This document shows, in pieces, positions 9,462 through 40,235 of a stretch of DNA of 40,606 bases. Each line of letters starts with the position of its first letter. Within the stretch, counting starts at the first letter, position 1. The stretch is from the IMG/VR virus record IMGVR_UViG_3300046747_000228. One strand, given 5' to 3'. The stretch is from a virus. The notes under the pieces were generated by a model, which made no database searches, was not told the DNA's origin, and was given only the letters and a program-made list of their open reading frames with translations. Position numbers and translations under genes: made by a program.

Positions 9462-9613
9462 GAGATCAGCCCTTCCCACGTCCCGCCTGCAGCGACGACG
9501 GCGATAGCGAAACCGGCGACCATGCCGAGAATCAGCAGACCGAGACGCTGGTCGACGTAACGCAGCATGAGCCACCCGAAAACCATCACCAGAAATTCAA
9601 CGACCACGATCAT
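9458..9613 (-). CDS. Small membrane protein
   Basis: 51-aa product MIVVVEFLVMVFGWLMLRYVDQRLGLLILGMVAGFAIAVVAAGG has two hydrophobic helices. ATG 9613 shares one base with the upstream TGA. Confidence 0.55.
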   Translation of the reverse strand: MIVVVEFLVMVFGWLMLRYVDQRLGLLILGMVAGFAIAVVAAGGTWEGLIS

Positions 9614-25073: not shown

Positions 25074-28000
25074 TCAGAGTGCCCACCTTCCAGCGCTTTT
25101 CGCGTGCACTGTGGTGCCCGCGGGGATCGCCTTCGCGACCCCGTTGATTGCTCTTGCGACCGTAGCGTCTTGAATGCCGGCGTCGGTCGTGATGGTCACG
25201 TCATCGACGTACAAGACCGTGCCGGCCGTCGGCGACGCGCGGACGCTCGGGCCGTACCCGAGGAATGCGGCGTCGTCCGGGGCGGTCGCGGTAACGGTCC
25301 GCTGCACGAAGCTTCCCGAGGCGAGCGAGGCGAGACCGGAATCGTCGGTCGAGAGGTAGTCCCCGTTCGCGTCGTACCAATCGATGGTGGCGCGAACGTC
25401 AGTGAGCAGCGCGGTCGAGCGCACCCATACGCCGAGCGTGTACGTCGCGCCCGGAACGACCCCGGGGGAATTGGCCAATGACGGCCGGATGTACGCCTGC
25501 GTCGGCGACCCCGTGACGGTCATGAGACCGGAGAATGACCCGCCGTGCGCGAAGGTGCCCGAGCGCGCGAGCGTGCAATTCGCGTTGAGGCCCCAATCGG
25601 TGATGTCCGACGTGTTCTCGAAGGCGCCGGAAATGAGCTTCGTATCGCTGCTTCGAGCGCCCATCGTGGTGACCGTGACGACCTCGCCCGTGCTCAGCAT
25701 GAGATCGGGCGTTGCGGTCGTCGACCATTTGATCTTTTTGGTGCCAAGCTTAAGCGACGTGCCGGCCGACGTCGCCGCGCTGATTACGTAAGAGCTCTTC
25801 GCGTCCCACAGACTCGTGGCCGAGTCCCACTCGCCGACCTGCAGCAGTTCCGCGGGTGAGCAGGCGAGCTCGACGTCCCATTTGTCGAGGTTCAGGGTCT
25901 CGGTGAAACCCTCGATGATGAGGTCGATGGTCTGCCCCGCGAGCTGCGCGCTCGGCGGGTTGGCGATCGTGATGCGCGAGCCGATACGGCAAGCGAGCCA
26001 CCCCGGGGCGAACTCGGGGTGAGCAATCAGATTGATCTTGACCCGTGGCCAACGGAGGAAATCTGCCGTGCTCTGGTTGAGCATCCATGAGGCGAAGTCA
26101 ATGAGGCGGCCGTCACTAGCGATGTTGAGCTCGGCCGAGTCGTCGAGTGTGCCCGTCTTCGCGATCGAGGCGGCATCCTCGACCGTGACGTTTTGCGCGC
26201 CCCCGGTCCTGCTGAGCTTCCATTTGTTCCGAAAGCGCTGGTCGTCGTCGGTCGGTTCGGGTGCCTCATCGAGGTGACCGAGCGCCCAGTCGAGCGCGAG
26301 CGCAACGGGCATGTTGTACCGGCGAGTGCGCGGGATGTACATGAGCGCATTGCCCCGCTCGCAGAGCACTCCCTGATCGGCTTCCTCGCACTCGCGCAGC
26401 AGGTCTACGAGCTTCCCAGGGCGCTGCCTACCCATCGGTTCCGAGTCGCCGTCGAGCACGTACGACGGCACGTTGTTCTCGCCGCACAGTCGCGCGAAGC
26501 GCGCGGAAGCGGTCTCGGTGGCGTAGCCGTCGGCGACGAGCGTAAACGTGCCGTCGACGAATGGAAGGTCGTTGTCGCCAAACCACAGGTGGGCAACGGC
26601 CATATTGTCGGATACCGGAATGATCGAGAAATAGTCGGGCTTAGTGGACGTGCCCGCGTACGTGTCGGTCGACGCCCAGTAGTCGACCTCGCCGATTTGA
26701 TGCCAGAGCAGCGCGACCGAGACGGTACCTCCCGAGACGTTCGTCTCGAGTTGCATGGCGATCCACTGCGTTGGGTCGACCGCCCAAGCGGCGCCGGCAC
26801 CCGCGATCGACGCTCCCGACGAGTCGGCCGCATCCCACGTCAAGGATGTCGCATCGACAATCAGGCTGAATACGCGCATCGTGCCCGTACACCGGAGGTA
26901 GATCATCTGCGTCGGGACCGCGGGGAGCGAGTCCATCTTGAAAAACCACAGGGCCGCGAAGCCGTCCGGGGTCGGCGTACTGCGGATGTTGAACTGGATG
27001 TTTCCCGTGGCGGGCGTGTCCATCGTCGGCACGGGCGCCGAGCCAGCCAAGGTGTCGACCGCAGCGAAGGTCACGCCTGACGTGATGGCGATATCGCCGT
27101 CGGTCGACAGGAGGTGCTGCGCACCGCTTTCCTCCTCGCAGGGGTAGTACGTGAACGGGCTCTGTGCGCTGAGATGGCTTAGGAGTGGCGAGTTGACCGG
27201 GCTCGTACCGGTCGAGAGGCGACGGATGATGCCTGCCCCGACGAGCGGCATGGTCGAGTCTTTGCCGCTCTTCTCCGGCCATTTGGGCGCCCACTCGGGC
27301 ACGTTGCCAGACCACAGCAGGTTGACGAGCGTGAAGTCGTCAACCTTCGCCGTGTACGTGCCGGCGTTCGTATTGATCCGCCAGCCGAACCAACCTGTGC
27401 CGACGCCCTCGACGGAACTGTCGGTCGTGACACCCTGCCACGTGTCCGGCTCGTCGGAGAGCGCCCCGGTCCACGTCTTGACCATGATGTACGGGCCGTC
27501 CGCCCGGGCCTTGCCCCAAACCTTCGTGCCGGCCGAGTACGTGACCGAGGTCGCGGTAAGCGCCAAGCGATCGGACTGAGCGCCCTTGTACACCCTCTGA
27601 ACCTTGACGGCGACCGTGCCGGCCGCCTGCAGCTCGACGTGAGCCCGCACGAGGTTGCTCGCGTCCGTGTGCCGCAGCAGCGCGGCCGAGACGAATGAGG
27701 CCCCGGTCGGCATGACGTCGAGCGTCGTCGACCATACGATCTCGACGTCCGGCGAGCCGGCGTCGACGACGACGTTGCGGCACGCATTGTTGGTCGCGAG
27801 CACGATCGTCGCCTGCGTGCCGTCGACGGCCGCCGTGCCGTTGCTCACGGTCCATGCGAACCCTTCGGGGGTCGACCCCCACCCGGACGCTACGGTTCGC
27901 GTGAACGGGTCATCGACCCGCGGCATGGTGACGCGCGCCGGCGTGCCGCGGCCGATCTGCCCGAAGTAGGCGCCCATAGCGTTGCGCGGCGAGAGGCGAC

Positions 28001-28199
28001 CGTCGCGGTTGTCCATCAGGGTCGAAAGCGAGCCAGCCTCGACCTCGTTCGCCTCATCGTCGCGGCCGGCGGTGATGACGATGTCGGCCTTCCGGCGCCG
28101 CTTGCCGGCGTCGACCCATTGCCACAACGACGGATCACCCGCAGGGTTTGCCCCGGGAGCGATCTCGATCGCTGTGCTGACTCGGGGGTCACTGCTCAC
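25074..28199 (-). CDS. Minor tail protein (distal tail/tip protein with a C-terminal carbohydrate-binding-like domain)
   Basis: 1041-aa ORF immediately after the tape measure gene (GTGA overlap at 28196-28199). The C-terminal roughly 170 aa (GAFENTSDITDWG...GATYTLGVWVRS...IDWYDANGDYLS) resemble CBM4/9-type jelly-roll modules. Confidence 0.7.
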   Translation of the reverse strand: MSSDPRVSTAIEIAPGANPAGDPSLWQWVDAGKRRRKADIVITAGRDDEANEVEAGSLSTLMDNRDGRLSPRNAMGAYFGQIGRGTPARVTMPRVDDPFTRTVASGWGSTPEGFAWTVSNGTAAVDGTQATIVLATNNACRNVVVDAGSPDVEIVWSTTLDVMPTGASFVSAALLRHTDASNLVRAHVELQAAGTVAVKVQRVYKGAQSDRLALTATSVTYSAGTKVWGKARADGPYIMVKTWTGALSDEPDTWQGVTTDSSVEGVGTGWFGWRINTNAGTYTAKVDDFTLVNLLWSGNVPEWAPKWPEKSGKDSTMPLVGAGIIRRLSTGTSPVNSPLLSHLSAQSPFTYYPCEEESGAQHLLSTDGDIAITSGVTFAAVDTLAGSAPVPTMDTPATGNIQFNIRSTPTPDGFAALWFFKMDSLPAVPTQMIYLRCTGTMRVFSLIVDATSLTWDAADSSGASIAGAGAAWAVDPTQWIAMQLETNVSGGTVSVALLWHQIGEVDYWASTDTYAGTSTKPDYFSIIPVSDNMAVAHLWFGDNDLPFVDGTFTLVADGYATETASARFARLCGENNVPSYVLDGDSEPMGRQRPGKLVDLLRECEEADQGVLCERGNALMYIPRTRRYNMPVALALDWALGHLDEAPEPTDDDQRFRNKWKLSRTGGAQNVTVEDAASIAKTGTLDDSAELNIASDGRLIDFASWMLNQSTADFLRWPRVKINLIAHPEFAPGWLACRIGSRITIANPPSAQLAGQTIDLIIEGFTETLNLDKWDVELACSPAELLQVGEWDSATSLWDAKSSYVISAATSAGTSLKLGTKKIKWSTTATPDLMLSTGEVVTVTTMGARSSDTKLISGAFENTSDITDWGLNANCTLARSGTFAHGGSFSGLMTVTGSPTQAYIRPSLANSPGVVPGATYTLGVWVRSTALLTDVRATIDWYDANGDYLSTDDSGLASLASGSFVQRTVTATAPDDAAFLGYGPSVRASPTAGTVLYVDDVTITTDAGIQDATVARAINGVAKAIPAGTTVHAKSAGRWAL

Positions 28200-30310
28200 G
28201 CGAGTACCACCTGCCCGTTACCGCCGTTCTTGACGCGGAAGGACTTGCGGATCCAGCGCCTAAATTCCTGCTCGCCGCCCGGGGTTATCTGCACGATGAT
28301 GGGGCGCTCATCGCCGCGGCCGGCAAGGTTCGGAAGCTGCGAGATCGGCGCGACCGCCTCGGCTTCGCCCCCTTCGGCGACGTTGACGAGCCGGCCGCCC
28401 GGGGTCGCGGGAACGATGCCGCCGTGCGCAAGCTGCGGGATGCTCGGCACACCGATCGTCCCCCCGCCGAACGTGTGCCCGAGCACGGAGAATGACGGAA
28501 TCGAGAAATGCAAGCTATTCCACTTGCCGATGACCCAATTGATTGCCGAGCGGAAACCGGATTTTAGCCCGTCCCACATCGACGAGAGCTTCGCGCGGAC
28601 CTTCGCGGGCATGCCCATTATCCAATTGAAAAACGCAACGCCCTTCGACTTGATCCAATTCCACGCCGTGACCGCAGCGCCCGAGATCAATCGCCACGCG
28701 CCGACGTATACCGAGATATAGCGCTTGATCGCGCCGAGTAGCCAATTGAAGACGACGACCGCGGCCTGCTTGATCCAGTTCCACGCGACGACGGCCGCCT
28801 GCTTGATGACGTCCCATGCGGCGATCCAAAACTTCCGGAACGCCTCGCTATGAGTCCAAAGCAGGTAGATCACGCCGACGAGCGCGGCGACGGCGAGGAT
28901 GATCAAACCGATCGGGTTGGCATCCATCGCGATGTTGAGCAACCACTGAGCAGCGGCCCATGCCTTCGTCGCGACCGCGACCGCGCCTTGCTTGATCAAG
29001 TAGGCGGCGATCTGAGCAGTAGCGGCGACGAAGTTGGCGGCGACGATCGCGCCGTTGTACAGAAGCTGCGCTGCCGCGGCGAGCCCGGTCGCCGCGCGAA
29101 CGGCGATGACCTTCGCGAGGTAGACCGCGATCTGCGCCGAGGCGAGCACGAAGTTCGAAGCGCCGAGCGCGATCTTCCATGCGACCTGCGCGACGGCCGC
29201 CGCTTTGGTGCGCGCCTCGGCGATGGCGGCGATCACGTTGTACACCTTGAGCGCCGCGTTGTACGCCAGGAAACCAGCGACGATCGCCGTGATCCAAGAC
29301 GGGGGCACGGCCGCCACGAGACGAGCCAGGGCGCCGGCAACGGCGCCCGTGATGGGCGCGAGTGGCGCGACCGCCTGCGCGATGTGCACGGCGGCCGTGG
29401 CGATCTGCCCGAGCATCGTGACGAGCCGCGGGCCCTGGGCTTGCATGTACGCGATGACCTTCGTGAAGCCCGCATCCTTGCCGGTCTCACTCGTGAATGC
29501 CGCCCACTTGGCGGTCACGTCGTCGAGCCACTTAAGGATGCCCTGCCCCTGCGCGTCGCCGAAGCGGCCGAAGATGTTGGCGAACGTCTTGCCGAGGTTG
29601 AGCACGATGCCCGTGAGCGAGTCCATCGCCGGGCCGGCACGCGCGACCATGCGTTCGATGAACCCGCCCTGAGCACCCTTCTCGATGGCGCTCAGGAGGC
29701 GCGAGACGGCCTTCTCGCCGATATCGAAGAGCGGTTGCAACTTCAGTACCGCGCTACCGATCAGCTTGTATCCGCGAGTCAGGATGCCGAATACGGCGGG
29801 TTTGTTGGTCTCGACGAAATCTTGCCAATCCGATTTCAGCTGGATAAACGCCATGGTCGCGGTACGGGTGGCAGGGGGGAGATTCTTCAATCGCGCCTGC
29901 AGCTCGAGGGTCGCCTCGGCTTGCTTCTTGAGGTACTTCGAGTTGTCCTGCCCCGCCTTCGCGGCGAGCTTCGCCTCGGTCTTGTAGAGCGCGATCTTGT
30001 CGCTGAGGTCGGTGACCTTCGTCGCGGCCTCGGTCACGTCCGTGACGGCCGTCTTAGTGACGGCGCCGAACACGCCGAGAGCGGCGCCCGCCCCCGCGAG
30101 CGCCGTCCCGAGACTGATGATGCCGGCCGTTGCGCCGGCGGCGAGGGGGACGACTGCCGAGACGCCCGCGAGCCCGCGGATCGCCTTGCCGGCAACGTCG
30201 TCGAGTTTGTTGAACGCCTTCGTGAGGTCCGTGCCGACCGCCTTGGCGCCCTTCTTAACGTCGTCGACGTCGATGCCGATCTCAATCAGCAGGTCGGCAA
30301 GAGTCGACAC
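28196..30310 (-). CDS. Tape measure protein
   Basis: 704-aa Ala-rich helical protein with long hydrophobic segments and W-containing repeats (AWNWIKQAAVVVFNWLLG, AWNWIKSKGVAFFNWIMG). It lies directly downstream of the G/G-T chaperone genes. Confidence 0.85.
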   Translation of the reverse strand: MSTLADLLIEIGIDVDDVKKGAKAVGTDLTKAFNKLDDVAGKAIRGLAGVSAVVPLAAGATAGIISLGTALAGAGAALGVFGAVTKTAVTDVTEAATKVTDLSDKIALYKTEAKLAAKAGQDNSKYLKKQAEATLELQARLKNLPPATRTATMAFIQLKSDWQDFVETNKPAVFGILTRGYKLIGSAVLKLQPLFDIGEKAVSRLLSAIEKGAQGGFIERMVARAGPAMDSLTGIVLNLGKTFANIFGRFGDAQGQGILKWLDDVTAKWAAFTSETGKDAGFTKVIAYMQAQGPRLVTMLGQIATAAVHIAQAVAPLAPITGAVAGALARLVAAVPPSWITAIVAGFLAYNAALKVYNVIAAIAEARTKAAAVAQVAWKIALGASNFVLASAQIAVYLAKVIAVRAATGLAAAAQLLYNGAIVAANFVAATAQIAAYLIKQGAVAVATKAWAAAQWLLNIAMDANPIGLIILAVAALVGVIYLLWTHSEAFRKFWIAAWDVIKQAAVVAWNWIKQAAVVVFNWLLGAIKRYISVYVGAWRLISGAAVTAWNWIKSKGVAFFNWIMGMPAKVRAKLSSMWDGLKSGFRSAINWVIGKWNSLHFSIPSFSVLGHTFGGGTIGVPSIPQLAHGGIVPATPGGRLVNVAEGGEAEAVAPISQLPNLAGRGDERPIIVQITPGGEQEFRRWIRKSFRVKNGGNGQVVLA

Positions 30311-30311
30311 G

Positions 30312-31054
30312 CTAACCCCCTCCCATCGCCTTGTGTAGCCGTCGAACCGTTCGAAGCATCTGCTCGGCGCCGGCCGCTTCGCCTTGACCCTGAGCAGCCC
30401 GTACCGCTTGCCACTTCGGCAGGAACTCGTCGGCCCGGTAGGGCCGTTGCGCCTTCCCGCGGTTCACGTTCGCGATCGTCGACATGAGCATCGCGAACAA
30501 ATTATCGAGGCGCTCGTCGCCGATCGGCCCGGTTACCGCCTCGTACGCCTCCCACTCTGTCAGCTCACGCGACGTGACCCGCTCGAGCAGTTCCTCGACC
30601 GTGCACCCGAGCGCGAGCGCTAGTCGGAAGTACCTCCGTCGCTCGGGTCGTTGCCGAAATTTTCGGCGAGCTTCTCCACATCCTGCTCGCTCATGCCGCT
30701 CAGTCGCCGCGCGGCGTCGAAGATCCGCTCGATCGGCGCCGCGCTCTTGCGTCCGAGCGCGCGCACGTCGTCGCTCGTGAAGACCGGGGTGCCGCTCTTG
30801 TCGACGACCGTGAGAACGACCATCTTCGCGCGGGCGTTCTGCAGGTTCACGCTCCGGCTATTGCCGTTGGTCTTGATAATCGATTCCTCGTACGCGTCCC
30901 GCTGCGCACCGGAGAGGTTGCGTACGCGCACCTTCCCGCCCCACTCCGGACAGTCGACGACCTCGTACTTCCGGTCGTCGGCGTCGATGATCGCATCGCG
31001 GCCGAGGAAATCCTCGACCGCGGCGTCCGAGTCGGTCACGTTCTGATCAGTCAT
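30312..31054 (-). CDS. Tail assembly chaperone, -1 frameshifted G-T fusion product
   Basis: The frame reached by a -1 slip at 30656-30662 stays open to TAG 30312-30314. It encodes ...LGCTVEELLERVTSRELTEWEAYEAVTGPIGDERLDNLFAMLMSTIANVN..., a typical T-part sequence. No independent start or SD is seen for this frame. Confidence 0.7.
30620..31054 (-). CDS. Tail assembly chaperone (G form)
   Basis: 144-aa acidic protein between the tail tube and tape measure genes. The slippery heptamer lies 11 codons before its stop. Confidence 0.8.
   Translation of the reverse strand: MTDQNVTDSDAAVEDFLGRDAIIDADDRKYEVVDCPEWGGKVRVRNLSGAQRDAYEESIIKTNGNSRSVNLQNARAKMVVLTVVDKSGTPVFTSDDVRALGRKSAAPIERIFDAARRLSGMSEQDVEKLAENFGNDPSDGGTSD
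30656..30662 (-). other. Programmed -1 ribosomal frameshift site (AAATTTC)
   Basis: The minus strand reads GCC GAA AAT TTC GGC. The X XXY YYZ heptamer A AAT TTC is in the zero frame of the G gene. Confidence 0.7.
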
Positions 31055-31076
31055 TCTGTCGTCTCTCCCTGTGTGC

Positions 31077-31514
31077 CTAGCTACCGGTCTGCGCGAGCGT
31101 CGGCTTGCCCGTGACCTTGATCGTAAGGCTGCGGGTCATTTTGTCGTCATACGCGAACTCATCACCGAGGTTGGTCATGATCCCGCGAAGGGTCCACGTC
31201 CACTCGTCCGCGGTGTCGGGCAGGAGTACTACCCGGTAGTTCCGCGGATCGGTGTCGTCGAAGTCGTCGTCGAGGTCGTGCGTCGCCTCAGCGGGGTCGT
31301 AATTGATGTCGAGCTGAACCTCGCCGCCATCCTTGAGACCGCCAATGAATTCCATCCACTGATCGGGCGAGTCGTGCGCGGTAACGTCGATCGTCTCGCG
31401 CTTGCGGTCCGGCCCCTTGATGTTCGTGACGTTGGCGATCGTCGCGTAAACCGTGCCCGGGGTGAGCGTGGTGGCGCGCTGGAATAGAGTACCGAAAGCA
31501 TCGCGACCCGACAT
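31077..31514 (-). CDS. Major tail (tube) protein
   Basis: 145-aa ORF upstream of the chaperone genes. Its size and sequence (TIDVTAHDSPDQWMEFIGGLKDGGEVQLDINYD) are typical of small siphovirus tail tube proteins. Confidence 0.75.
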   Translation of the reverse strand: MSGRDAFGTLFQRATTLTPGTVYATIANVTNIKGPDRKRETIDVTAHDSPDQWMEFIGGLKDGGEVQLDINYDPAEATHDLDDDFDDTDPRNYRVVLLPDTADEWTWTLRGIMTNLGDEFAYDDKMTRSLTIKVTGKPTLAQTGS

Positions 31515-31529
31515 GCGCGGTCGCCTCCC

Positions 31530-31994
31530 TTACGTGAGCTGCTGCGTCTGTATGCGAAATCGTACGACGTGGTGACGTATCTGCGGGTCAGGGTCCTCGA
31601 GTGCCTGATCAAATTCCTGGCGGATGGTCACGCACTTGTGCCCGTCCGCTGCGAGCAGCGCCGAGATCTCGGCGACCTTGTGGTCGAGCGATGACGTGAT
31701 CGCGTTGGCGATGTCCTGCCCGGGCTTGCTGCTGCGGGTGTACGTCCACACGTGCAACGTCTCGGTGATCTCGCGCCCGAACGAGGTTTGATCGTTGTCG
31801 GGGATCGAGAGGTGGTCGCCGATGCGCACGTACGGCTTCGCTTGCCCTTCGGGCGCCTGATCGACGACGGCCGGCGTTGCCGGCGTGACGTCTTTGATGG
31901 GCGCGAGCAGGGAGGCGAGCGTCGTGTCGGCGCGCAAGCGAGCAACGATCGCCCGCTGCAGGGGCGTGATCGGATTGCGGTTCGTGATGGTCAT
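31530..31994 (-). CDS. Tail terminator / tail completion protein (DUF3168-like)
   Basis: 154-aa product LQRAIVARLRADTTLASLL...KPYVRIGD...LHVWT matches the DUF3168 pattern. It has an ATGA overlap at 31991-31994. Confidence 0.65.
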   Translation of the reverse strand: MTITNRNPITPLQRAIVARLRADTTLASLLAPIKDVTPATPAVVDQAPEGQAKPYVRIGDHLSIPDNDQTSFGREITETLHVWTYTRSSKPGQDIANAITSSLDHKVAEISALLAADGHKCVTIRQEFDQALEDPDPQIRHHVVRFRIQTQQLT

Positions 31995-32365
31995 AGCCTC
32001 TTGAGCTCCGCTGCGATCTCGGCTCGTACACGCTTCGGGAAACGGCGCCGAGCGCGCTCGGCCGCAGGCTGCACGAAGGGCTGAGCCTTCGTGTCGTCGG
32101 TACCGTGCTCGACGAATGTGGCGTACCGCGCGGTCGCCACGGCGCGCCCGCGCAGCAGCTTCTCGTCGTACTCGGCCTGAATCGACTCGCGAAGCTCTCC
32201 GGTCTTGTACGGCGCCCCGCGCTTCATGTCGTCCCGAGTCTCGTACGTCTCGTCGCGGACCGCTCTGCCGCCCGCTGAGCGCACTAGAAACGGCATCGCT
32301 ATCAACTTGGCGCGCAGCTTTTCCATGCCGTGGATAGTGATCGTCTCCCGGCGCCCGCGAGCCAT
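31991..32365 (-). CDS. HK97 gp10-like head-tail connector (neck) protein
   Basis: 124-aa product GAPYKTGELRESI...YATFVEHGT...AQPFV is a classic HK97 gp10 family signature. Confidence 0.75.
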   Translation of the reverse strand: MARGRRETITIHGMEKLRAKLIAMPFLVRSAGGRAVRDETYETRDDMKRGAPYKTGELRESIQAEYDEKLLRGRAVATARYATFVEHGTDDTKAQPFVQPAAERARRRFPKRVRAEIAAELKRL

Positions 32366-32368
32366 GGC

Positions 32369-32818
32369 CTACTCCGTCGACTTCCGCGGCCGGCCGGGGG
32401 CGCGGCGGGGCGCGGCCGGGGGCGCCACGGGGTCGACGCCGGCGTCGAGGATGCCGAAGAGCACCTCGACGAGCCAGCCTTCGCGCTCGGTGTCAACGTC
32501 GACGGGCATGAGCCCGCGGGTCTGCAGCCCGTCAACGATGGTCGCGAGCTGTAGGCGGTAGCCCTCGGCGACCGACTCGGCCTCGGCAACCTTGCCGGGC
32601 CACGTCTCACCGTCGCCGCGCTCGGCCGCGCTCGGGCCGTCGTGCTCGTCGTCACCCTCGTACGGGAGATCGATCTTGTACGGCATGAACGAGTCGGGGT
32701 ACGCCTTCGCGACCGGGTGGCGAGCGTCGGCGAACGTGCGCCCGCGCACGACGCGATACTTCGAGCCGTCCGGCGCCGTGATGATGCCGTTTCGCTTCGA
32801 GACGACGATCTCGGTCAT
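32369..32818 (-). CDS. Hypothetical protein with a C-terminal AT-hook-like tail
   Basis: 149-aa ORF with an ATGA overlap with the upstream GT-like gene. It ends in PRRAPGRPRKSTE. No family recognised. Confidence 0.65.
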   Translation of the reverse strand: MTEIVVSKRNGIITAPDGSKYRVVRGRTFADARHPVAKAYPDSFMPYKIDLPYEGDDEHDGPSAAERGDGETWPGKVAEAESVAEGYRLQLATIVDGLQTRGLMPVDVDTEREGWLVEVLFGILDAGVDPVAPPAAPRRAPGRPRKSTE

Positions 32819-33573
32819 GATGCCTCTCTTTCGGCGCGTAGGGCGCGCACCCTCGCCGCTTGCTCGGGTAGGTCGTCGCGTTTCCAGCGACGGTATATCG
32901 GTCGGTCCTTCGCGTACTGCTCGGGCGCGTTGACTCGCCGGTACTGCTCATCGAGCTCGGCTCGCCGCCCCGCGTACGGGTTGAGGTGGTCGATCAGCAC
33001 GTCGCCGAGGAACCGGTACGCGCCGGCCGCGGCGGCGAGATCCCGCACCGCGTCGTCGCAGTAGAGGTGCTCGACGCCGGCCGGCACCATGCGGCCGAGC
33101 TCGTGCACGATGTCCGCGGTCATCGCCCACTGCGTAGGCAGGTCGTCGGTTCGGTAACCGTCCGGACAGGAGACGACACCCGTGCCGAGATCGCGCAGCG
33201 CGGATAGGTAGCGGCCGACCCACCCGGGTGTCCGCGGACGGTGGTCGTCGCCCGCGAAGCCGAGCGCGTACGTTCCGGCGAGCAGCAGGTCGACGGCCGC
33301 TTCGTTGAGCTTCGGCACGAGCGGCGCCCACTGCGGGATGACAGACCACGTGATGAGGCGCTCGCCGCGACAGGCGGCGAGATAGCGAGCGGCGTCGAGG
33401 GCCGTGACGTACTCGTCATATGCCGGATCATCGGCGTCGATCACGAAGCTGAGCTCGGCGCCGTCGTCGAAGGCGCCCGTCTCGCGCCACGCTGCGACAA
33501 CCTCGGGAACGTTGCCCGGACGCGAGCGTGTCGGCACGATGACGATGAGGGGCGCGTTCATACGGAAAAGCAT
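32815..33573 (-). CDS. Putative glycosyltransferase (GT-A-like)
   Basis: 252-aa product LIVIVPTRSRPGNV...ELSFVIDADDPAY...FAGDDH fits a GT-A Rossmann-like N-terminus with a DxD motif. ATG 33561 is an alternative start. Confidence 0.55.
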   Translation of the reverse strand: MLFRMNAPLIVIVPTRSRPGNVPEVVAAWRETGAFDDGAELSFVIDADDPAYDEYVTALDAARYLAACRGERLITWSVIPQWAPLVPKLNEAAVDLLLAGTYALGFAGDDHRPRTPGWVGRYLSALRDLGTGVVSCPDGYRTDDLPTQWAMTADIVHELGRMVPAGVEHLYCDDAVRDLAAAAGAYRFLGDVLIDHLNPYAGRRAELDEQYRRVNAPEQYAKDRPIYRRWKRDDLPEQAARVRALRAEREAS

Positions 33574-33618
33574 AGACGTTCGGATGATTTTTTGATGAAA
33601 CGCAGCTCAGGGGGTAGA

Positions 33619-33629
33619 AACCTAGCAGG
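33619..33629 (-). promoter_or_regulatory. Single CTAGG promoter element that could restart leftward transcription after the opposite-strand gene
   Basis: The minus strand reads CCTGCTAGGTT (TGcTAGGTT), about 45 nt upstream of ATG 33573. It lies in an AT-richer intergenic region (33574-33679). Confidence 0.45.
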
Positions 33630-33679
33630 TTTGGCGATAGGCTCACTGCGTAAGCCCGACCGAACGAGGGAGACCCGAA

Positions 33680-34141
33680 ATGAACGGCATCGAGCGAGCG
33701 AACTGGACGATCGCCTACCGGAAGCCGCGGGCGAACCGCTTCCTGCGCGTGGCGACCTGGTCCGGCACCTGGTCGCAAGCTATGGGCATGCGGCGGTTGT
33801 TCGCCACGGCGAACCCCGAGCTCGAGGTCTACTGCACCTCGAGCCGCGCGGCCGAGATCGAGGGTTTCGTCATCGAGGAGGACTGCCGGAACATCCTGGT
33901 CGACTCGGGTCGTCGGGTGCGCATCTTCGAGACCGACGTCGAGTTGCCGGCCGAAATGGTCGCTCGCATCCCCGCGGCCGAGGTCGCCCGCGAGCGGTGG
34001 ATCGACGCCGAGCCGATCGCCGACGCCGCCGGACAGGGCTTCGAGGTCGCCCTGCGCGAAGGTGTCGTGCTCGCCGTCCGGGCGGCCGACTGGCACGAGG
34101 CGATCGTCGCGAACGCGGCGCGGGCGCTGCTTACCGCCTAG
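33680..34141 (+). CDS. Hypothetical protein encoded opposite to the structural operon
   Basis: 153-aa product MNGIERANWTIAYRKPRANRFLRVATWSG..., with GAGGGAG upstream. A possible -10, TAGGCT, lies at 33637-33642. Its TAG overlaps the TAG of the convergent GT2 gene through a shared CTAG. Confidence 0.65.
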   Translation: MNGIERANWTIAYRKPRANRFLRVATWSGTWSQAMGMRRLFATANPELEVYCTSSRAAEIEGFVIEEDCRNILVDSGRRVRIFETDVELPAEMVARIPAAEVARERWIDAEPIADAAGQGFEVALREGVVLAVRAADWHEAIVANAARALLTA

Positions 34142-34803
34142 TCGTCGCTCTCGTGGTGCCACGCGAAGGCGGGATGGTCGATTGCCGGCCGCCCCGCCTT
34201 CGGCACGATCGTCTTCGGGTCTTGCCATGAGGTCGTGTCGTCGCGGAACAGGTAGTGATACATGATCTTGTCGATATACGACTCGGTCACGAGGTGGCGA
34301 CGCACCTGCTTGACCCACACGCGATCTTCGGCGCGGCCGGAGCGGCAGAGCGAGAACAGACCCTCGCGGGCGAAGACCGCTCGGATGGGGTCAAGGTGCG
34401 TGAAGTCGCGATGAAGCACACCATCGGTCCGTCCCCAACGGCTATACCTGAGCGAGTGCTCGACGATCTCGCGGCCAGTGTCGTTGGTCGTGTACTCGAG
34501 TTTGAATCCCACGTGATCCGGCCGGCTTACGAGCGCGTTGACGATCTCGGCGACGTAGTACTCGGGCACGAGGTCGTCGTCGTCGATGAATGAGACGTAC
34601 TCGGCGCCGGCGGCGATCGCCGCGGCGATCAGCCCATCGCGGATCTCGCCGAGCGTCGGCCGCCCGTTATTCCGCCACGCGAGCAGGCGCACCTGCGGGT
34701 AGGCGTCGAGCTGCGGCAGCAAGACGCCCATCAGGCGCGCGAAGAGCTCTTCACGCTGGCCTAGGGTGGGCACAAGGATTGTCCATTTCGGGTCATTCGT
34801 CAC
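34138..34803 (-). CDS. Glycosyltransferase family 2
   Basis: 221-aa product WTILVPTLGQREELFARLMGVLLPQL...AGAEYVSFIDDDDLV is a canonical GT2 N-terminal pattern with a DxD motif. It has a GTGA overlap with the upstream methyltransferase gene. Confidence 0.75.
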   Translation of the reverse strand: MTNDPKWTILVPTLGQREELFARLMGVLLPQLDAYPQVRLLAWRNNGRPTLGEIRDGLIAAAIAAGAEYVSFIDDDDLVPEYYVAEIVNALVSRPDHVGFKLEYTTNDTGREIVEHSLRYSRWGRTDGVLHRDFTHLDPIRAVFAREGLFSLCRSGRAEDRVWVKQVRRHLVTESYIDKIMYHYLFRDDTTSWQDPKTIVPKAGRPAIDHPAFAWHHESDD

Positions 34804-35426
34804 AGTTGTTCTCCGTGCCGTCGGGGCGTTAGCAGGACATCGGACCAGCGCTCGTCACGCTTCCATTGAATGCGCGGCGCCCACCCCTCGACCTCCGCCC
34901 ACTCGAGCAGGTCGGGCCAGTACGCGCCGGGGGCGTCGGCGCCTTCAGATTGCGTCTCGATGATGATGAGATCGAGCCGGCCGAGATCCGCCGTGCGCAG
35001 CGCATCGAGCTCGGTTCCCTGCGTGTCGACGATCAGTACGTTGCCGAAGGTCTGCCCCTGAATCGCAGAGATCGGCACGACGTCGACGAGAAACGCGTCG
35101 GTCTGCTCGTGCCGGCCGTCGCGCATGAGCCCGGAAAACGACGTGTCCGCCATACGGTGGAACTCGGCGCGCCCCTGCTGCCCGCAGGCCACATTGACGA
35201 TGCCGACGCGCGGGTCGGCGATCCACGGTTGCCCTGCCATGACGCCGCAGCTTTGCGGGTCTGGCTCGACGAGCGTGATCCGCTCAAAGCTGCAGTCGAG
35301 ATAGAGCGGCACCTCCTGCCCGTGGTGGGCGCCAATGTGGATCACGCCGACCGGGCGGATGCGGAGCTCTTCGAGCGCGTCGCCGATCAGTCGAAGGGAC
35401 CAGCGCCAATCGCGGATGATCTTCAC
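34800..35426 (-). CDS. FkbM-family SAM-dependent methyltransferase
   Basis: 208-aa product GVIHIGAHHGQEVPLY...ITLVEPDP...LIVDTQGTELDALRTADL matches the FkbM (Methyltransf_21) motif order. It has a GTGA overlap with the adaptor gene. Confidence 0.75.
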   Translation of the reverse strand: MKIIRDWRWSLRLIGDALEELRIRPVGVIHIGAHHGQEVPLYLDCSFERITLVEPDPQSCGVMAGQPWIADPRVGIVNVACGQQGRAEFHRMADTSFSGLMRDGRHEQTDAFLVDVVPISAIQGQTFGNVLIVDTQGTELDALRTADLGRLDLIIIETQSEGADAPGAYWPDLLEWAEVEGWAPRIQWKRDERWSDVLLTPRRHGEQL

Positions 35427-35776
35427 GTATTGCTCCCTTCCGGCTGCAGCTGCTCGCAGTCCGCGCGTAGGTACACCCGGTCAGACGGCGTAACGGTCGA
35501 CTTCACGCGCAGATCATCGCCGTCGTCGAGCGCGATGAGGTGGTCGCCGCGGCGCACGTCGGCCGACGGTTTGAAGTGCGCGATCACAGAGAACGCGGCC
35601 TGCGCTTGCATCGCCTCGAGCTGCTCGACGCTCGCGGGCTGCGACACCTTCGCGCGCACGACGCCGTGATCGACCTCGGCGACGCTCGCGCCCCCGACGT
35701 CATCGCGCGTGGTCGTTGGTCGCATCACCCGAAAACGCCGGTTGAGCTCGTGCGTTCCGATCTCGCCGTCCCTCAT
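35423..35776 (-). CDS. Head-tail adaptor (head closure) protein
   Basis: 117-aa ORF. Its size, position after the connector gene and overall sequence are consistent with SPP1 gp16-like head-tail joining proteins. Confidence 0.6.
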   Translation of the reverse strand: MRDGEIGTHELNRRFRVMRPTTTRDDVGGASVAEVDHGVVRAKVSQPASVEQLEAMQAQAAFSVIAHFKPSADVRRGDHLIALDDGDDLRVKSTVTPSDRVYLRADCEQLQPEGSNT

Positions 35777-36492
35777 CAGTAGACCACTTCATCGAGGTCC
35801 GAGTTGTCGGCGCTGTAAGGGCTCACGAGGGTGACCGAGCGGAACGACGACCGGGTGCCGAACCTGCGCACGTCGATTTCCTCCTGCTCTGTGAGGTAGA
35901 CCGCCTCGCCCCCCTGCAGCCCGGAACGGTCGTAACTCGTCGTCCGGTCGCCGGTTGTGCGCTGCGAGAGCGCGTGCGGGTTGTCGAAGGCTCGGGCGGC
36001 CGACGCCACGCAGATACGGGCTATGCGCCGCGGCACGGCGTCGAGCGCGTTCGTGCCCGTCACGAGCCAGGTCTTGCCGGCAATGTCGCGGATTAGCTCG
36101 CTTGCTTCGTCGAGCAGGTACTCGGCGCGGTCGCGCTCGGTCTCGTCGAAGTCGTCGGCCGCCGCGCCGAGCTTGCGCGCGAGCATGGCGAAGCTACCGA
36201 GCGGCGGCACTTCGTCGTCGACGGCGCCCACGTAGAAGTAGCCGTCGGACGTGTCGGCGATGCCCCCCGTGATGTCCCACACGTACGCGTAGCGGCCGAC
36301 GACCGCCACCTCTGCCGGCGGAATGATGACGTCGAGGATGCCGGTACCGCCCGAGCTCGTCACGCCGGCGTACGTGGTGCCGTCGGTCTTCGTGAGCGTG
36401 AGGCTTCCCGAGATCCCTACCGGCGCTCCGGTATCCGGGTCGGTCGCCGTGTAGCGAAGCGGCACCGGGTCGCCGAAATCGTATCGCCGCAT
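35776..36492 (-). CDS. Head-tail connector (gp6-like) with an N-terminal beta-rich extension
   Basis: 238-aa ORF. The C-terminal half (DDFDETERDRAEYLLDEASELIRDIAGKTW) resembles gp6-like connector proteins. The N-terminal roughly 100 aa form an extra Thr/Gly-rich domain. Confidence 0.6.
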   Translation of the reverse strand: MRRYDFGDPVPLRYTATDPDTGAPVGISGSLTLTKTDGTTYAGVTSSGGTGILDVIIPPAEVAVVGRYAYVWDITGGIADTSDGYFYVGAVDDEVPPLGSFAMLARKLGAAADDFDETERDRAEYLLDEASELIRDIAGKTWLVTGTNALDAVPRRIARICVASAARAFDNPHALSQRTTGDRTTSYDRSGLQGGEAVYLTEQEEIDVRRFGTRSSFRSVTLVSPYSADNSDLDEVVY

Positions 36493-36507
36493 GCTGGCCG
36501 CCTCTCC

Positions 36508-37368
36508 CTAGTCCGCGACTCGTACGCGGGTAACGATACGGCCGGGTGCCGGCCGCGAGGTGGAGACGGCGCCCGGTCCGCGGTTGACGAGCCGCGGCGC
36601 GACGACCCGCGCGGCGCTGCCATTCGATCCGGCCGACGATGGCGCGAGATTCAAGCCGAGCGCGACGGCGCCGGCCGCCTCACGCACGCACGCGGCGGCG
36701 AGGCCGAGGTCGAGCGTCACGGCCACGGCGCCGGCATGCCGTGTCGCGCCGGCGGCCGAGACGGCGAGGTCGAGACCGGCGTCGGCCGTGCCCTCGTGCG
36801 CTGTAGCGCCGGCGGCCGAGACGGCGAGGTCGAGCCCGACGTCGACCGTGCCCTCGTTCGGTCCAACGTCGGCCGGCACAAACACGACGTCGACGAAGTA
36901 GCAACCGCTTCCTGAGGCGTTCGTCGGGAATATGGTCTCGGTGCCGCCGGTAACGGCGAAGCGGCCGGCGTCGGCCGGCGTACTCAGGTCGCCATTCGTG
37001 AGTGGCCACGGGGAGCTAGCGCCGGTCGACGCGACGTACCGGTCGGGGGTGCGGATTGCCGCGCAGTAGGTAACGCCGGCCGTGACCGAGATCGCGGAGG
37101 CGAGCGCAACCTCGTTCCACTGGTCAAGGTCGCCCGGAACGGGGAACGCGACGTCGGGCTCGGCCGCGAGCTTGGCACTGTCGCTGTTGCGGAACAACGA
37201 CGCCTTGACCGCCTGGTCAAAGGGCTGCGCGGTGAACGGGAACCACCACCGAATAGCCGTGATGGTGCCGTCGACGGCCGGCGTGAAGTAGGTTCCGAGC
37301 GTGTAGACCGTGCCGTCCGACGCGTCGTGAAAGACCGGAACCTGACTCGTGAAGAGCGACTCGGTCAC
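36508..37368 (-). CDS. DUF4082-domain protein with four C-terminal 20-aa repeats (candidate capsid decoration or adhesin)
   Basis: 286-aa ORF. The N-terminus YTLGTYFTPAVDGTITAIRWWF...GVTYCAAI fits the DUF4082 pattern. The C-terminus holds the repeats GTVDVGLDLAVSAAGATAHE, GTADAGLDLAVSAAGATRHA, GAVAVTLDLGLAAACVREAA and GAVALGLNLAPSSAGSNGSA. Confidence 0.6.
   Translation of the reverse strand: MTESLFTSQVPVFHDASDGTVYTLGTYFTPAVDGTITAIRWWFPFTAQPFDQAVKASLFRNSDSAKLAAEPDVAFPVPGDLDQWNEVALASAISVTAGVTYCAAIRTPDRYVASTGASSPWPLTNGDLSTPADAGRFAVTGGTETIFPTNASGSGCYFVDVVFVPADVGPNEGTVDVGLDLAVSAAGATAHEGTADAGLDLAVSAAGATRHAGAVAVTLDLGLAAACVREAAGAVALGLNLAPSSAGSNGSAARVVAPRLVNRGPGAVSTSRPAPGRIVTRVRVAD
36613..36852 (-). 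repeat. In-frame tandem repeat, 4 units of 60 bp
   Basis: The 29-mer gcgccggcggccgagacggcgaggtcgag is exact at 36746-36774 and 36806-36834, a period of exactly 60 bp. The flanking units are more diverged. Confidence 0.85.
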
Positions 37369-37378
37369 GGCGCCCCGC

Positions 37379-37714
37379 TCAGGTCGACGAGCCGGTAACA
37401 GTCAGGCTCGTGATGCTGTACTCGCCCGCCGCGTTGAAGGTCTGGTCACCCGTGAGCGCGTCGTAACCGTAGAACGTGCCGGCCGTCGACGCGCTGTAAA
37501 ACAGAGCGTGCGTCGCGCCGGCACCCGGGGTGCCGGTGAAGTCGTAGGGCACGCCGGTCGCGGTGATGACGCCGGCGGCGACGGTGCTCGCGAGCTGCAC
37601 GCGCGCGGCCGAGGTCTGATTGCCGGACGCGTTGCCGTTGCCGATGGCAACCCAGATGACCGCTTCATTGCCGTCCTCGAGTACGGCATTGATGCCTGCT
37701 GTGTTCAGGGGCAC
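37379..37714 (-). CDS. Hypothetical structural protein downstream of the capsid gene
   Basis: 111-aa Gly/Ala/Thr-rich ORF starting at GTG 37714. It lies between the major capsid gene and the DUF4082 gene. Confidence 0.6.
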   Translation of the reverse strand: MPLNTAGINAVLEDGNEAVIWVAIGNGNASGNQTSAARVQLASTVAAGVITATGVPYDFTGTPGAGATHALFYSASTAGTFYGYDALTGDQTFNAAGEYSITSLTVTGSST

Positions 37715-37793: not shown

Positions 37794-38768
37794 TTAGGAG
37801 CCGGACCGGATCGCGACCGCGCGCACGAGGTGCGAGGCGCTGTTCGGGTCGGTCGGAGTGATGGGGTCGTTCACGGTCGCCGTGCCGACCCATGCGTTGA
37901 CGAGCGATCGGTCGGTCGTGTTCGTGTAGTCGTAGTCCATCAGCCAGCGGACCGACACGCCGTTGTAGAACTGCGCCTCGCCCGCGCGAGCGCCCGCCTG
38001 CTGCGTCTGCCCGAAGGTCGCGCCCCGCGGGACGAGCGGCGCCCGGGTAGCGAGCACGAAAGCGGTCCGGTGGTACGCGTACGCGACGTCGTCGTCGATC
38101 TGGGTGGTGGGAACGACGGCGAGTCCCGCGATCATGCCGATCATCCGGCGCCGCAGGGCGTCGGTAACCTCGGGACCGATCGCGTCGAAGCGGGCGAAGC
38201 GGTCGTCGGTGACGATCTGCTCCTTCACGTCGGCGCCGACGAGCAGGTACCGGTCGTCCTCGGGCACGTTCTGCTTGTCGAGCAGCTTCGCGGCGCGAGC
38301 GGCCACGAGGTACCAATCGGTCGAGCCCGAGACGAGAAACTCGGTGTCGGTCGGGTCGATCGTGTTGACGTAGGTCGCGTTCTCGATCTCATCGATCGCC
38401 TCATCCTCGATGCCCTCGACGACGGCGCGCACCTGCGGGGAAAGCACCTGCGTCGCAAAGTCGGTGATGTCGAGGGTGAGCTCTTCGTCGGTGATCGGGG
38501 CGCCGTTGTAAACGTCGGTCGTGAGCTGCACGGGCACGCCGAACTCGTTCGACGCGTCGTTGACGATCGCCGTGCCGGCACGCAGGGTGCGCTTACGGGC
38601 GGTCCGGCGAGCAGGGACGCGCATGGTCACGGTGTCGTTCAGGGCGCCGGTGAACTCACCCGGGTTGACGGCGTCGGTCCACAGAGTCTTGCCGACCACA
38701 AGGTCGCGGTACAGCAGGCCGACGGCCGCACGCGCGATGACGGTTGGCTTAAGGAACTTGTTAGCCAC
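37794..38768 (-). CDS. Major capsid protein
   Basis: 324-aa ORF starting at GTG 38768 after GGGAG, directly downstream of the scaffold gene. The N-terminus MANKFLKPTVIARAAVGLLYRDLVVGKTLW and the size fit the actinophage HK97-fold/P22-coat-like capsid families. Confidence 0.8.
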   Translation of the reverse strand: MANKFLKPTVIARAAVGLLYRDLVVGKTLWTDAVNPGEFTGALNDTVTMRVPARRTARKRTLRAGTAIVNDASNEFGVPVQLTTDVYNGAPITDEELTLDITDFATQVLSPQVRAVVEGIEDEAIDEIENATYVNTIDPTDTEFLVSGSTDWYLVAARAAKLLDKQNVPEDDRYLLVGADVKEQIVTDDRFARFDAIGPEVTDALRRRMIGMIAGLAVVPTTQIDDDVAYAYHRTAFVLATRAPLVPRGATFGQTQQAGARAGEAQFYNGVSVRWLMDYDYTNTTDRSLVNAWVGTATVNDPITPTDPNSASHLVRAVAIRSGS

Positions 38769-38818: not shown

Positions 38819-39427
38819 TTAGCGTCGCGGGACTTTCGCGACGAGCTCTAAGGGATCCATCTTCTCGAGGTCGGGCTCGGCGCCCGTTGTGCCCGGGGCG
38901 CCCGAGCGCAGCGTTTCTTTCGGCCGGCGGCCGGCGGCCGGCGTGCGCTGCGCGTCGGTCTCGCCTCCCTGCTGCGCATCATCGGTGCCGTCGCCTTCGG
39001 TCCCCTTGCCGGCATCGCCGTCGGTTTCCGTGGTCGTCTTCGTGGTGGTCGTCTTCGCCTTACGCGCCGCGACGTCGATGCCGAGGTCGTCGACGAGCTC
39101 CTGCGCGTCGGCACGCAGCTCGTCGGCACTCTTGCCGGACAGTCGCCGCGCCTCCTTCCGCGTCAAGCCGAACTCGTCGGCGACGTCACGCCGCGCGACC
39201 TCGAGATCGGCAGACTCGGCGCGCTTGGCAAGCGCGGTCATCTGCTCAGTCAACTTGTCGAGCTGCGACTTGCTCTTGTCGGCATTGCTCGCCGCCGCTT
39301 TGAGGTCGTCGTAATCGGCGTACTTCGCGTTGAGCTTCTCCCGCTCCCGATGCGCCCCCGCCGCGGCAGCGCGGTCGAGGTCAGCCTGCGTGAACGTCTT
39401 CGTGCCCGACTCTCCGTCGTCACCCAT
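38819..39427 (-). CDS. Scaffolding protein
   Basis: 202-aa highly charged helical protein (DLDRAAAAGAHREREKLNAKYADYDDLKAAA...). It lies between the MuF-like and capsid genes. ATG 39427 is preceded by GGAG. Confidence 0.7.
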   Translation of the reverse strand: MGDDGESGTKTFTQADLDRAAAAGAHREREKLNAKYADYDDLKAAASNADKSKSQLDKLTEQMTALAKRAESADLEVARRDVADEFGLTRKEARRLSGKSADELRADAQELVDDLGIDVAARKAKTTTTKTTTETDGDAGKGTEGDGTDDAQQGGETDAQRTPAAGRRPKETLRSGAPGTTGAEPDLEKMDPLELVAKVPRR

Positions 39428-40235
39428 TGCCCGAGTCTCCGCTCGTATACTGCCCCGCTGCGGGTCGACCGTTGTCGAGCCATCTGCGGTAGTTATTGAG
39501 AGCATTATTGCTTGTGTCTACCGACATTGTGCCACTCGCCTTCGCCCATGCTTGCGCGTCGCGGAATTCGGCGTGGAACTTGTCGGACTGAGCGGCAACG
39601 CCGACGGCCGCGGGGTCGCCGCGGTACACGGGCTCGGGCATGCATGAGCAGTGATCGTGCGGGTGGAATTCGGCCGTTTGCTCCGATTTGTACGCAGGTC
39701 CACGAGCAGCAAGCGAGCGGCAGAACGCGCACGGATCGCCGCTCGTCGCCCGCAACCAGCCGAGCGCGCGGCCGTCGGTCGCCGTGCCGTCGATGATCGT
39801 TTGCCGGCCGCCCCCGAGCACGAGCTTCGTGAGCTCACCCGAGACCTTGATCAGACCCTGATCCTTCGCACCCGACATCGTCATGCCCGCGCGGCGGCCG
39901 TCGAGGATGCCCTTAAGGGCAGCGCCCCGCAGTTGTCCGGCCATCAAGACGAGCGCCGGCGTCACGGCGACCGTGACGCCGGCGGCGACGGCGCTCGCGA
40001 GCTCGATCCTGCGAAACAGGCCGTAGTAAGTGGCGCCGGCCGCGGCCGACTGGTCGAATCCACTACCCGCGATACCCGCTGCGGCCTGCGCGAAGGGGTC
40101 GATCGTGCCGGACAAATTCTCGACGTCGACCAACGGCCAGATGCGCATGAGCGCTTGCAGCGAACGAGCCCGCACGGCGAGCTGTGCCGTGCGGTTGATG
40201 TTCGTGAGCTGCGCGCCCGCGGCCGTGAGCGCCAT
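39420..40235 (-). CDS. MuF-like minor capsid (head morphogenesis) protein
   Basis: 271-aa ORF. The C-terminal SGDPCAFCRSLAARGPAY...HPHDHCSCMPEPV is the characteristic Cys/His motif of MuF/SPP1 gp7-like proteins. ATG 40235 shares a base with the upstream TGA. Confidence 0.7.
   Translation of the reverse strand: MALTAAGAQLTNINRTAQLAVRARSLQALMRIWPLVDVENLSGTIDPFAQAAAGIAGSGFDQSAAAGATYYGLFRRIELASAVAAGVTVAVTPALVLMAGQLRGAALKGILDGRRAGMTMSGAKDQGLIKVSGELTKLVLGGGRQTIIDGTATDGRALGWLRATSGDPCAFCRSLAARGPAYKSEQTAEFHPHDHCSCMPEPVYRGDPAAVGVAAQSDKFHAEFRDAQAWAKASGTMSVDTSNNALNNYRRWLDNGRPAAGQYTSGDSGNG

Follow-up and report, generated by a model that had tools for sequence, protein, structure and literature searches.

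A candidate virion-glycosylation cassette in the head-tail connector module of a metagenomic siphovirus

Why should a siphovirus carry glycosyltransferase genes among the genes that connect its head to its tail? This question is raised by the 40,606-bp sequence analysed here as a whole (the window), an entire metagenomic contig of circularly permuted gene order (IMG/VR virus record IMGVR_UViG_3300046747_000228), in which a group of putative sugar-modifying genes at 32815-35426 occupies the tenth position of the structural operon. An earlier note, made from the sequence alone, had proposed that this group is a late-expressed unit which builds a methylated-sugar decoration on virion proteins or, alternatively, modifies the host envelope. 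On balance, our analysis favours the former: we consider the locus to be probably a late-expressed virion-glycosylation cassette, located among the head-tail connector genes of a ~40-kb siphovirus, and methylated-sugar decoration of the virion remains, in our view, the best hypothesis of its function.

The five open reading frames (ORFs) described in the earlier note were found with the same coordinates and strands, i.e. the genes of an FkbM-type methyltransferase (34800-35426), glycosyltransferase 1 (34138-34803), glycosyltransferase 2 (32815-33573) and a protein of 149 amino acids (aa) (32369-32818, operon position 11) on the minus strand, and an antisense gene (33680-34141) on the plus strand; every motif quoted for the cassette proteins was also located. 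The third-codon-position GC content of the five ORFs (0.84-0.93) is like that of the neighbouring structural genes, and all of them are real genes. The 4-base start/stop overlaps were confirmed as well: GTGA at 35423-35426, in which the methyltransferase start codon overlaps the stop codon of the head-closure gene, GTGA at 34800-34803 and ATGA at 32815-32818. The earlier view that these genes belong to a late operon and are translationally coupled to structural genes holds. The CTAG palindrome at 34138-34141 represents the overlapping stop codons of glycosyltransferase 1 and the convergent antisense gene. No sigma-70-type promoter or intrinsic terminator was detected across 32000-36600.

On its upstream side the cassette is bounded by the gene at 35423-35776 (minus strand, operon position 9), which had been taken for a head-tail adaptor. 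This was an error: the product matches PF05521 (4e-7) and PHROG 25 and is the head-closure/completion protein Hc1, and the adaptor Ad1 is encoded at 35776-36492 (minus strand, position 8). The downstream connector gene (31991-32365, minus strand, position 12) had been correctly recognised as HK97 gp10-like (PF04883, 2e-7; PHROG 5) and encodes a neck/tail-completion protein. None of the five noted proteins has a membrane segment. A defence function was considered and rejected, as the PADLOC scan of all five proteins gave no defence-system match.

Glycosyltransferase 1 (221 aa) is a GT2-like enzyme of the GT-A fold, as previously proposed. With 18.2 bits it scores below the gathering cut-off of the Pfam GT2 model PF00535 (23.3), whereas its homologue Pas33 of phage phiAsp2 (44% identity) exceeds this cut-off with 29.0 bits. 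The assignment is supported by PHROG 14775 'glycosyltransferase' (5e-41), by similarity to the GT2 N-terminal domain of gp108 of mycobacteriophage Che8 (27% identity, blastp 5e-14) and by the match of the family profile to GT2 enzymes of the PDB, including GalT1 (5hea) at 1e-6. The DDDD motif (D74-D77) is invariant in the 19 sequences compared.

Glycosyltransferase 2 (252 aa) represents a family without a Pfam model. It gave no match in Pfam and NCBIfam, no precomputed Pfam domain is assigned to any of the 120 listed clusters of homologues (out of 681), and its profile retrieved only noise from the PDB sequences. The earlier note had called this protein GT-A-like and had proposed a structure search as a check, and the fold was borne out by it. 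The AlphaFold2 model, based on 42 homologues, reached a pLDDT of 93.2 and a pTM of 0.91, and Foldseek found 176 PDB matches with E ≤ 0.001; among the matches listed, 50 of 50 are GT-A enzymes, the best being PcManGT (6yv7, 7e-9), followed by RmlT, WrtF, TarP, TarS and SpsA. The residues D46, D48 and D49 (DxDD), G108-D109-D110-H111, H169 and H196 are invariant in 42 sequences, and the acidic DxD-type metal/nucleotide-binding motifs of GT-A enzymes appear to be present among them. In addition, the protein matches PHROG 2675 (3e-68) and PHROG 14945 'glycosyltransferase' (4e-26) and shares 48% identity with the N-terminal domain of phiAsp2 Pas34. Its homologues comprise 681 clusters and were found on 423 IMG/VR stretches (candidates confirmed by tblastn). 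The cassette is widespread among uncultivated actinophages.

The earlier note regarded the insertion point and the combination of genes as unusual and advised a search for the same insertion in related genomes. We compared 31 distinct contigs spanning the head-closure and gp10-like genes, mostly IMG/VR relatives of ~40 kb, in which the related loci (designated by L numbers) were read as stretches of at most 10 kb on either side. In 29 of the 31, among them a Micromonospora prophage, both glycosyltransferase genes lie between the head-closure and gp10-like genes. The cassette thus recurs at this site and is no one-off splice; judged from this sample, which is biased towards carriers, neither the insertion point nor the combination of genes is unusual in the lineage. 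Read from the head-closure gene to the gp10-like gene, 19 contigs have glycosyltransferase 1, glycosyltransferase 2 and the 149-aa protein. The FkbM gene precedes glycosyltransferase 1 in three more contigs of this kind, one of them with the antisense gene, and stands between the two glycosyltransferase genes in another three, while a single contig has the glycosyltransferases, the 149-aa protein and the antisense gene without FkbM. Three members of a second, more distant lineage (L106, L114 and L117) carry FkbM, glycosyltransferase 1 and glycosyltransferase 2 without a homologue of the 149-aa protein, one contig (L038) has the 149-aa protein alone, and one (L040) has neither the cassette nor the 149-aa protein. 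The core of the cassette therefore comprises the two glycosyltransferases only.

The identity of the glycosyltransferases correlates with that of the neighbouring structural genes (Spearman rho 0.55-0.77), which is consistent with long co-inheritance. In a scan seeded with the tail tube protein, all covering contigs whose tube protein was at least 75% identical carried the cassette. A megablast search of GenBank phages with 31000-37500 gave no match, so that none of the isolated phages is closely related in DNA sequence.

In the second lineage the tail terminator is ~34% identical to that of the window, and two extra ORFs follow glycosyltransferase 2. These ORFs precede the gp10-like gene (L106 6639-8166, L114 6747-8654, L117 5014-6521) and encode proteins of 234-271 aa with a DPDE motif and of 267-296 aa with a sub-threshold Stealth_CR2 match; they may be additional sugar or sugar-phosphate transferases.

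The third enzyme of the window cassette (208 aa) is an FkbM-family class I S-adenosylmethionine-dependent methyltransferase, and this earlier assignment was upheld by scores above the curated cut-offs of both PF05050 (30.7 bits, cut-off 22.7; 4e-7; profile positions 1-152 of 173) and TIGR01444 (39.6 bits, cut-off 37.7; 6e-10). It also matches PHROG 36045 (4e-30), and its G32-A33-H34-x-G36 and E54-P55-D56 motifs are invariant in six sequences; a profile search of the PDB gave no match. Only 9 of the 29 contigs with the cassette carry the gene, placed ahead of glycosyltransferase 1 or between both glycosyltransferases, and it is an optional module of the cassette. Probably it encodes a sugar O-methyltransferase.

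Other methyltransferases are found in the same slot. Four loci carry between the two glycosyltransferases a gene for a 227-aa PF04989 'rhamnosyl O-methyltransferase/CmcI' protein (2e-30), at 8654-9337 in L018, 8675-9358 in L020, ~633-1277 in L022 and ~3411-4064 in L070, and L020 has CmcI and FkbM together. In the phiAsp2-like genomes (~58 kb), glycosyltransferase 2 and a Methyltransf_24 domain form a single fusion protein, and a third glycosyltransferase follows. FkbM, rhamnosyl-O-methyltransferase/CmcI and fused Methyltransf_24 are thus interchangeable types. As three unrelated methyltransferase families are combined with one glycosyltransferase core, the methyl acceptor is likely to be the sugar product of the glycosyltransferases. 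An ORF of 84-92 aa (MTKPTTGRILRYRG…) is frequently located beside the CmcI gene (L019, L020, L070).

The methyltransferases also bear on the possibility that the cassette hypermodifies the phage DNA and thereby counteracts restriction. DNA-glycosylating phage glycosyltransferases are well known, as cited in a passage of PMC12619734. However, the FkbM and CmcI families consist of O-methyltransferases of sugars or natural products, the cassette lies in the structural operon, outside the replication module, and no hydroxymethylase or other base-modification gene was present among the ORFs scanned. We therefore consider DNA modification very improbable.

Which virion proteins could receive the sugar? 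In mycobacteriophages, glycans are located at the C-termini of the capsid and tail-tube subunits, according to passages of PMC12619734 (citing Freeman 2023) and PMC12363180. In the window, the major capsid protein (37794-38768, minus strand, operon position 5; 40% identical to the Attoomi capsid protein) ends with …AIRSGS and the major tail (tube) protein (31077-31514, minus strand, position 14, flanked by the genes of the tail terminator and the tail assembly chaperone) with …AQTGS. These are the only GS endings among the 36 window ORFs, and the expectation estimated from amino-acid composition is ~0.005 per protein. The 111-aa head protein (37379-37714, minus strand, position 6; PHROG 240 'head protein', 2e-5), a possible decoration protein, ends with …TVTGSST, and its relatives with TGSST or TGSSS. 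A background rate of GS endings over all loci (4.2%) was discarded, as it is dominated by the capsid and tube homologues themselves.

The best acceptor candidates, as far as can be predicted from sequence, would be the extreme C-termini of the capsid, tail tube and 111-aa head proteins. The tube C-terminus and the end of the 111-aa protein had already been listed in the earlier note and, with their conserved ends, rank among the best candidates. The tracts it had listed in the portal (DGTTTTGTG) and the scaffold (KTTTTKTTTE) do exist, but nothing specific favours either as an acceptor.

Similar ends recur in other glycosyltransferase-bearing phages. In the window-like relatives with the cassette, the terminal residue of the capsid protein is Ser in all cases and the tube protein always ends with TGS or SGS. 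A prophage of Micromonospora (L126), with glycosyltransferases in the connector module, has …EGS (capsid) and …TGS (tube), Che8 has …KTGS and …SDGS, Corndog …LVGS and …KGDS, and Che9d, in which glycosyltransferases are also present, …ADES and …LDES. The second lineage, again with the enzymes in the connector module, shows a capsid end of …GGGTSS and tube ends of …DSSL or …ASSL. Two phages with no glycosyltransferase in the structural-gene region examined end differently, i.e. Attoomi with …APVAP (capsid) and …APAAP (tube), and LeBron with …VTVPA and …VTVSA. L038, without glycosyltransferases between the connector genes, has the tube end …SGTP (its capsid gene lies outside the stretch).

Based on these observations, we suggest that two soluble GT-A glycosyltransferases would draw on host nucleotide sugars and form a short O-linked glycan. 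The acceptor would be the extreme C-terminal Ser (or Thr) of the capsid (…SGS), of the tube (…TGS) and probably of the 111-aa head protein (…GSST). The FkbM methyltransferase, where present, would O-methylate a sugar of that glycan, and neither the 149-aa protein nor the antisense gene would be needed for this chemistry. Protein acceptors, enzyme order, sugar identity and biological benefit are in this proposal what we infer.

Several points weigh against such an interpretation. Ser-type ends also occur without a glycosyltransferase in the stretches covered, namely in L037 (capsid …ATS, tube …TGS) and L039 (tube …AGS; no match for the capsid), and the cluster J phage LittleE, which has glycosyltransferases, ends its capsid protein with …PTFA and its tube protein with …IGLS. 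The correlation between Ser ends and the cassette is therefore suggestive but short of proof. In the tail-tube-seeded scan, all six of the more distant relatives were without the cassette. The proportion of 29 in 31 overstates the prevalence, since the loci were mostly retrieved with glycosyltransferase queries, and the relatives share ancestry, hence the conservation counts are not independent. Finally, the window proteins gave no blastp match to the GT25-type enzymes Che8 gp110 and Corndog gp38, which are said in a passage of PMC12363180 to be essential, and in hhalign comparisons glycosyltransferase 2 was unrelated to Che8 gp109 or gp110 (gp110 probability 0.1%).

The terminal Ser of L037 and L039, where no cassette is in view, would also be expected if the capsid and tube ends were simply structural and the enzymes acted on other targets, such as tail fibres or receptor-binding proteins, the DUF4082 protein of the head module, non-virion phage proteins or a small molecule. 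The likeness of the two ends within one phage even without glycosyltransferases, as in Attoomi and LeBron, points in the same direction and hints at a general matching of capsid and tube C-termini among actinophages. The genes concerned are located at 5662-6576 (capsid) and 7986-8552 (tube) in Attoomi (L153), and at 6085-7236 and 8990-9892, respectively, in LeBron (L154). On the other hand, the experimentally studied phage systems with related enzymes, in the passages of the literature that describe them, all modify capsid and tube C-termini, and their ends (…TGS, …DGS, …VGS) closely match those of the window. For these reasons we regard other targets as unlikely.

The arrangement of the window cassette was also found in bacterial chromosomes. 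It is present as a prophage in Micromonospora sp. NPDC049891 (L126; NZ_JBFAML010000001.1, 216007-232717), a variant arrangement occurs as a prophage copy in Phytohabitans aurantiacus (L134), and the glycosyltransferase pair was detected in other Micromonospora genomes. The prophage copies in genomes of cultured Micromonosporaceae suggest that the lineage is temperate, at least in part. As phage phiAsp2, moreover, infects Actinoplanes, the host of the window phage, a high-GC actinobacterium, probably belongs to the family Micromonosporaceae.

Prophages in this lineage raise the question whether the target could lie in the host. Prophage TarP and O-antigen-converting glycosyltransferases act on the host envelope, and an analogous modification of an envelope polymer (a cell-wall glycopolymer or glycolipid) might mask receptors, exclude superinfecting phages or free the progeny from debris. 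The structural neighbours of glycosyltransferase 2 indeed include the wall-teichoic-acid enzymes TarP, TarS and RmlT, and the Pfam family descriptions name glycolipid sugars among the substrates of FkbM and CmcI methyltransferases. However, the cassette genes lie within the late structural operon, translationally coupled to connector genes, and not beside lysogeny genes; the scanned ORFs of the window include no integrase. The cassette also differs from Gtr/TarP-type lysogenic-conversion loci, as it has neither a lysogeny/moron location nor membrane or flippase partners, and its own proteins contain no membrane segment. Modification of the envelope, moreover, leaves the conserved Ser ends of the unrelated capsid and tube proteins unexplained. 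It seems to us, by a little, even less likely than the other targets discussed above, and we retain virion glycosylation as the preferred function.

A broader idea can be put forward tentatively, as something that may well prove wrong. The core of two glycosyltransferases might be a widespread actinophage system in which …G-S-COOH, on otherwise unrelated virion proteins (capsid, tube, decoration protein), serves as the recognition signal, a C-terminal serine 'glyco-tag'. Swappable methyltransferases would then diversify the glycan cap between close relatives, and such variation would point to diversifying selection on the surface of virions in soil.

To our knowledge, a few mycobacteriophages are the only phages in which glycosylation of the virion has been demonstrated to date, and in them it shields the particles from antibodies. 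If our interpretation is true, it would be common in environmental phages of Micromonosporaceae-like actinobacteria, in which it would rely on a different second glycosyltransferase and on swappable methyltransferases. The C-terminal Ser would also constitute a simple, portable acceptor tag, of possible use in the glyco-engineering of phage particles. Cultivable carriers of relatives of the cassette are phage phiAsp2 and the prophage of Micromonospora sp. NPDC049891; neither of the two encodes an FkbM methyltransferase.

Two of the five ORFs stand apart from the enzymes. The 149-aa protein had been counted among the inserted genes, but L038 keeps a homologue of it between the head-closure and gp10-like genes without any glycosyltransferase, and L037 is similar, with an N-terminal homologue. 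Since a relative without the glycosyltransferases retains it, the protein is a member of the connector module, and the cassette is accordingly located between the head-closure gene and the 149-aa gene. The AT-hook proposed for its C-terminus is not conserved: PGRPRK is restricted to the window, L002 and L004, the tails of the other 16 relatives are of the KRAARPR, RKxxTP or KPR types without GRP, and only a basic, proline-rich character is common to them. In the structure model, a beta domain (residues 1-47) is followed by two helices (73-100 and 115-127), and the basic tail is disordered. Foldseek searches of the PDB and BFVD with this model returned only uncharacterised phage proteins, with no informative neighbour, and the sequence profile gave only noise against the PDB.

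The antisense gene (153 aa) lies between both glycosyltransferase genes, has a third-codon-position GC content of 0.92 and is preceded by a strong ribosome-binding site, GAGGGAG, 7 nt ahead of its ATG. It is a rare accessory insertion, present in 2 of the 29 cassette-bearing contigs; L002 and L004 are the only relatives with the gene in the same position. The N-terminal domain of ~85 aa (WTIAYRK…NILVDSGRRVRI) matches PHROGs 26559 and 11310 and also occurs in Corndog gp117 and other hypothetical proteins of cluster O. Corndog gp117 sits at another genome location than the glycosylation cassette of that phage. As the relatives of the antisense protein are mostly 200-244 aa long, the window gene carries an internal deletion.

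The antisense gene and glycosyltransferase 2 start divergently on either side of an intergenic gap of 106 bp (33574-33679). Where relatives lack the antisense gene, glycosyltransferase 2 directly or almost directly adjoins glycosyltransferase 1, and the gap breaks the translational coupling present there. A Shine-Dalgarno sequence is missing ahead of glycosyltransferase 2 (33574-33600, minus strand), and a TANNNT-like hexamer, TATGCT, is located 7 nt upstream of its second in-frame ATG, from which the N-terminus (MNAPLIV…) is the usual start among the homologues. The hexamer may mark the start of a leaderless transcript that arose from the insertion of the antisense gene.

The remaining structural genes are all encoded on the minus strand, and the operon wraps across the contig end. 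It begins with the large terminase (1552-3357, position 1) and the portal (34-1551, position 2), after which the wrap occurs, and continues with the protease (39420-40397, position 3) and the scaffold (38819-39505, position 4). The capsid and 111-aa head proteins are followed by a DUF4082 protein (36508-37368, position 7; PF13313, 3e-14), and downstream of the gp10-like gene lie the tail terminator (31530-31994, position 13) and, beyond the tube gene, the chaperone, tape measure and minor tail proteins (25074-31054, position 15).

In the C-terminal half of the DUF4082 protein, a unit of ~19 aa (…EGTxDxGLDLAVSAAGAT…) is repeated ~2.5 times in tandem. The protein is present or recognisable in no more than a subset of the relatives (L010, L012, L025, L074 and L122), hence it constitutes a further variable insert of the head module and is possibly a surface or decoration protein. 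In L036, a tandem pair of genes for the 111-aa head protein is present at 2258-2903, 79% and 53% identical to the window copy. One of the minor tail proteins (25074-28199, minus strand, 1041 aa) matches PHROG 5313 (2e-133) and in three stretches the 'phosphodiesterase' PHROG 24476 (6.5e-60), and is possibly a tail enzyme directed at a host surface polymer.

How does the window cassette compare with the known systems? Among experimentally characterised systems, the closest are Che8 gp108-110 and Corndog gp35-38, which are virion O-glycosylation systems according to the passages of PMC12363180, PMC12619734 and PMC11600133 that rest on Freeman et al. 2023 (Cell Host Microbe). They share with the window the combination of phage GT-A glycosyltransferases with a sugar-type O-methyltransferase, as well as similar Ser-terminal motifs of the capsid and tube proteins. 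The GT2 domain of Che8 gp108 is a homologue of glycosyltransferase 1, and in Corndog, as in the window, the glycosylation genes lie inside the virion structural operon, in this case between portal and protease (PMC4351075). The rule given in the earlier note, that such genes are found outside the structural operon, fails for Corndog and also for LittleE.

The differences are equally clear. Che8 gp108 is a fusion of GT2 and Methyltransf_24/TylF domains and Corndog gp35 is a TylF-type methyltransferase, whereas the window has an FkbM enzyme (PF05050). Che8 gp110 and Corndog gp38 match PF01755, and the second glycosyltransferase of the window belongs to another family, the one without a Pfam model. 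The insertion point follows the head-closure gene in the window, whereas the Che8 genes are located at the right genome end and those of Corndog between portal and protease. The probable hosts differ as well, i.e. Micromonosporaceae for the window versus Mycobacterium for Che8 and Corndog. The window cassette is thus unlike both systems in its second glycosyltransferase, its methyltransferase families, its insertion point and its lack of a GT25-type enzyme.

Cluster J phages (LittleE, Omega) resemble the window in having a glycosyltransferase cassette in the head-to-tail part of the structural operon, and LittleE gp15 shows weak homology (25% identity) to glycosyltransferase 1. Their cassette, however, follows the capsid gene and precedes the first connector gene, comprises four glycosyltransferases (gp15, gp17, gp18 and gp21) and a kinase (gp16), has no methyltransferase annotated in it and is accompanied by a capsid end other than Ser.

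The closest isolated-phage homologues of both glycosyltransferases are encoded by pas33-pas35 of the Actinoplanes phage phiAsp2 (NC_005885). This cassette differs from that of the window in its location downstream of the tail genes, in the fusion of Pas34 to Methyltransf_24 and in the presence of a third glycosyltransferase, Pas35, next to the pair. Nevertheless, Pas33 and Pas34 are adjacent and in the same order as the glycosyltransferase pair of the window, and in both phages a methyltransferase is associated with them.

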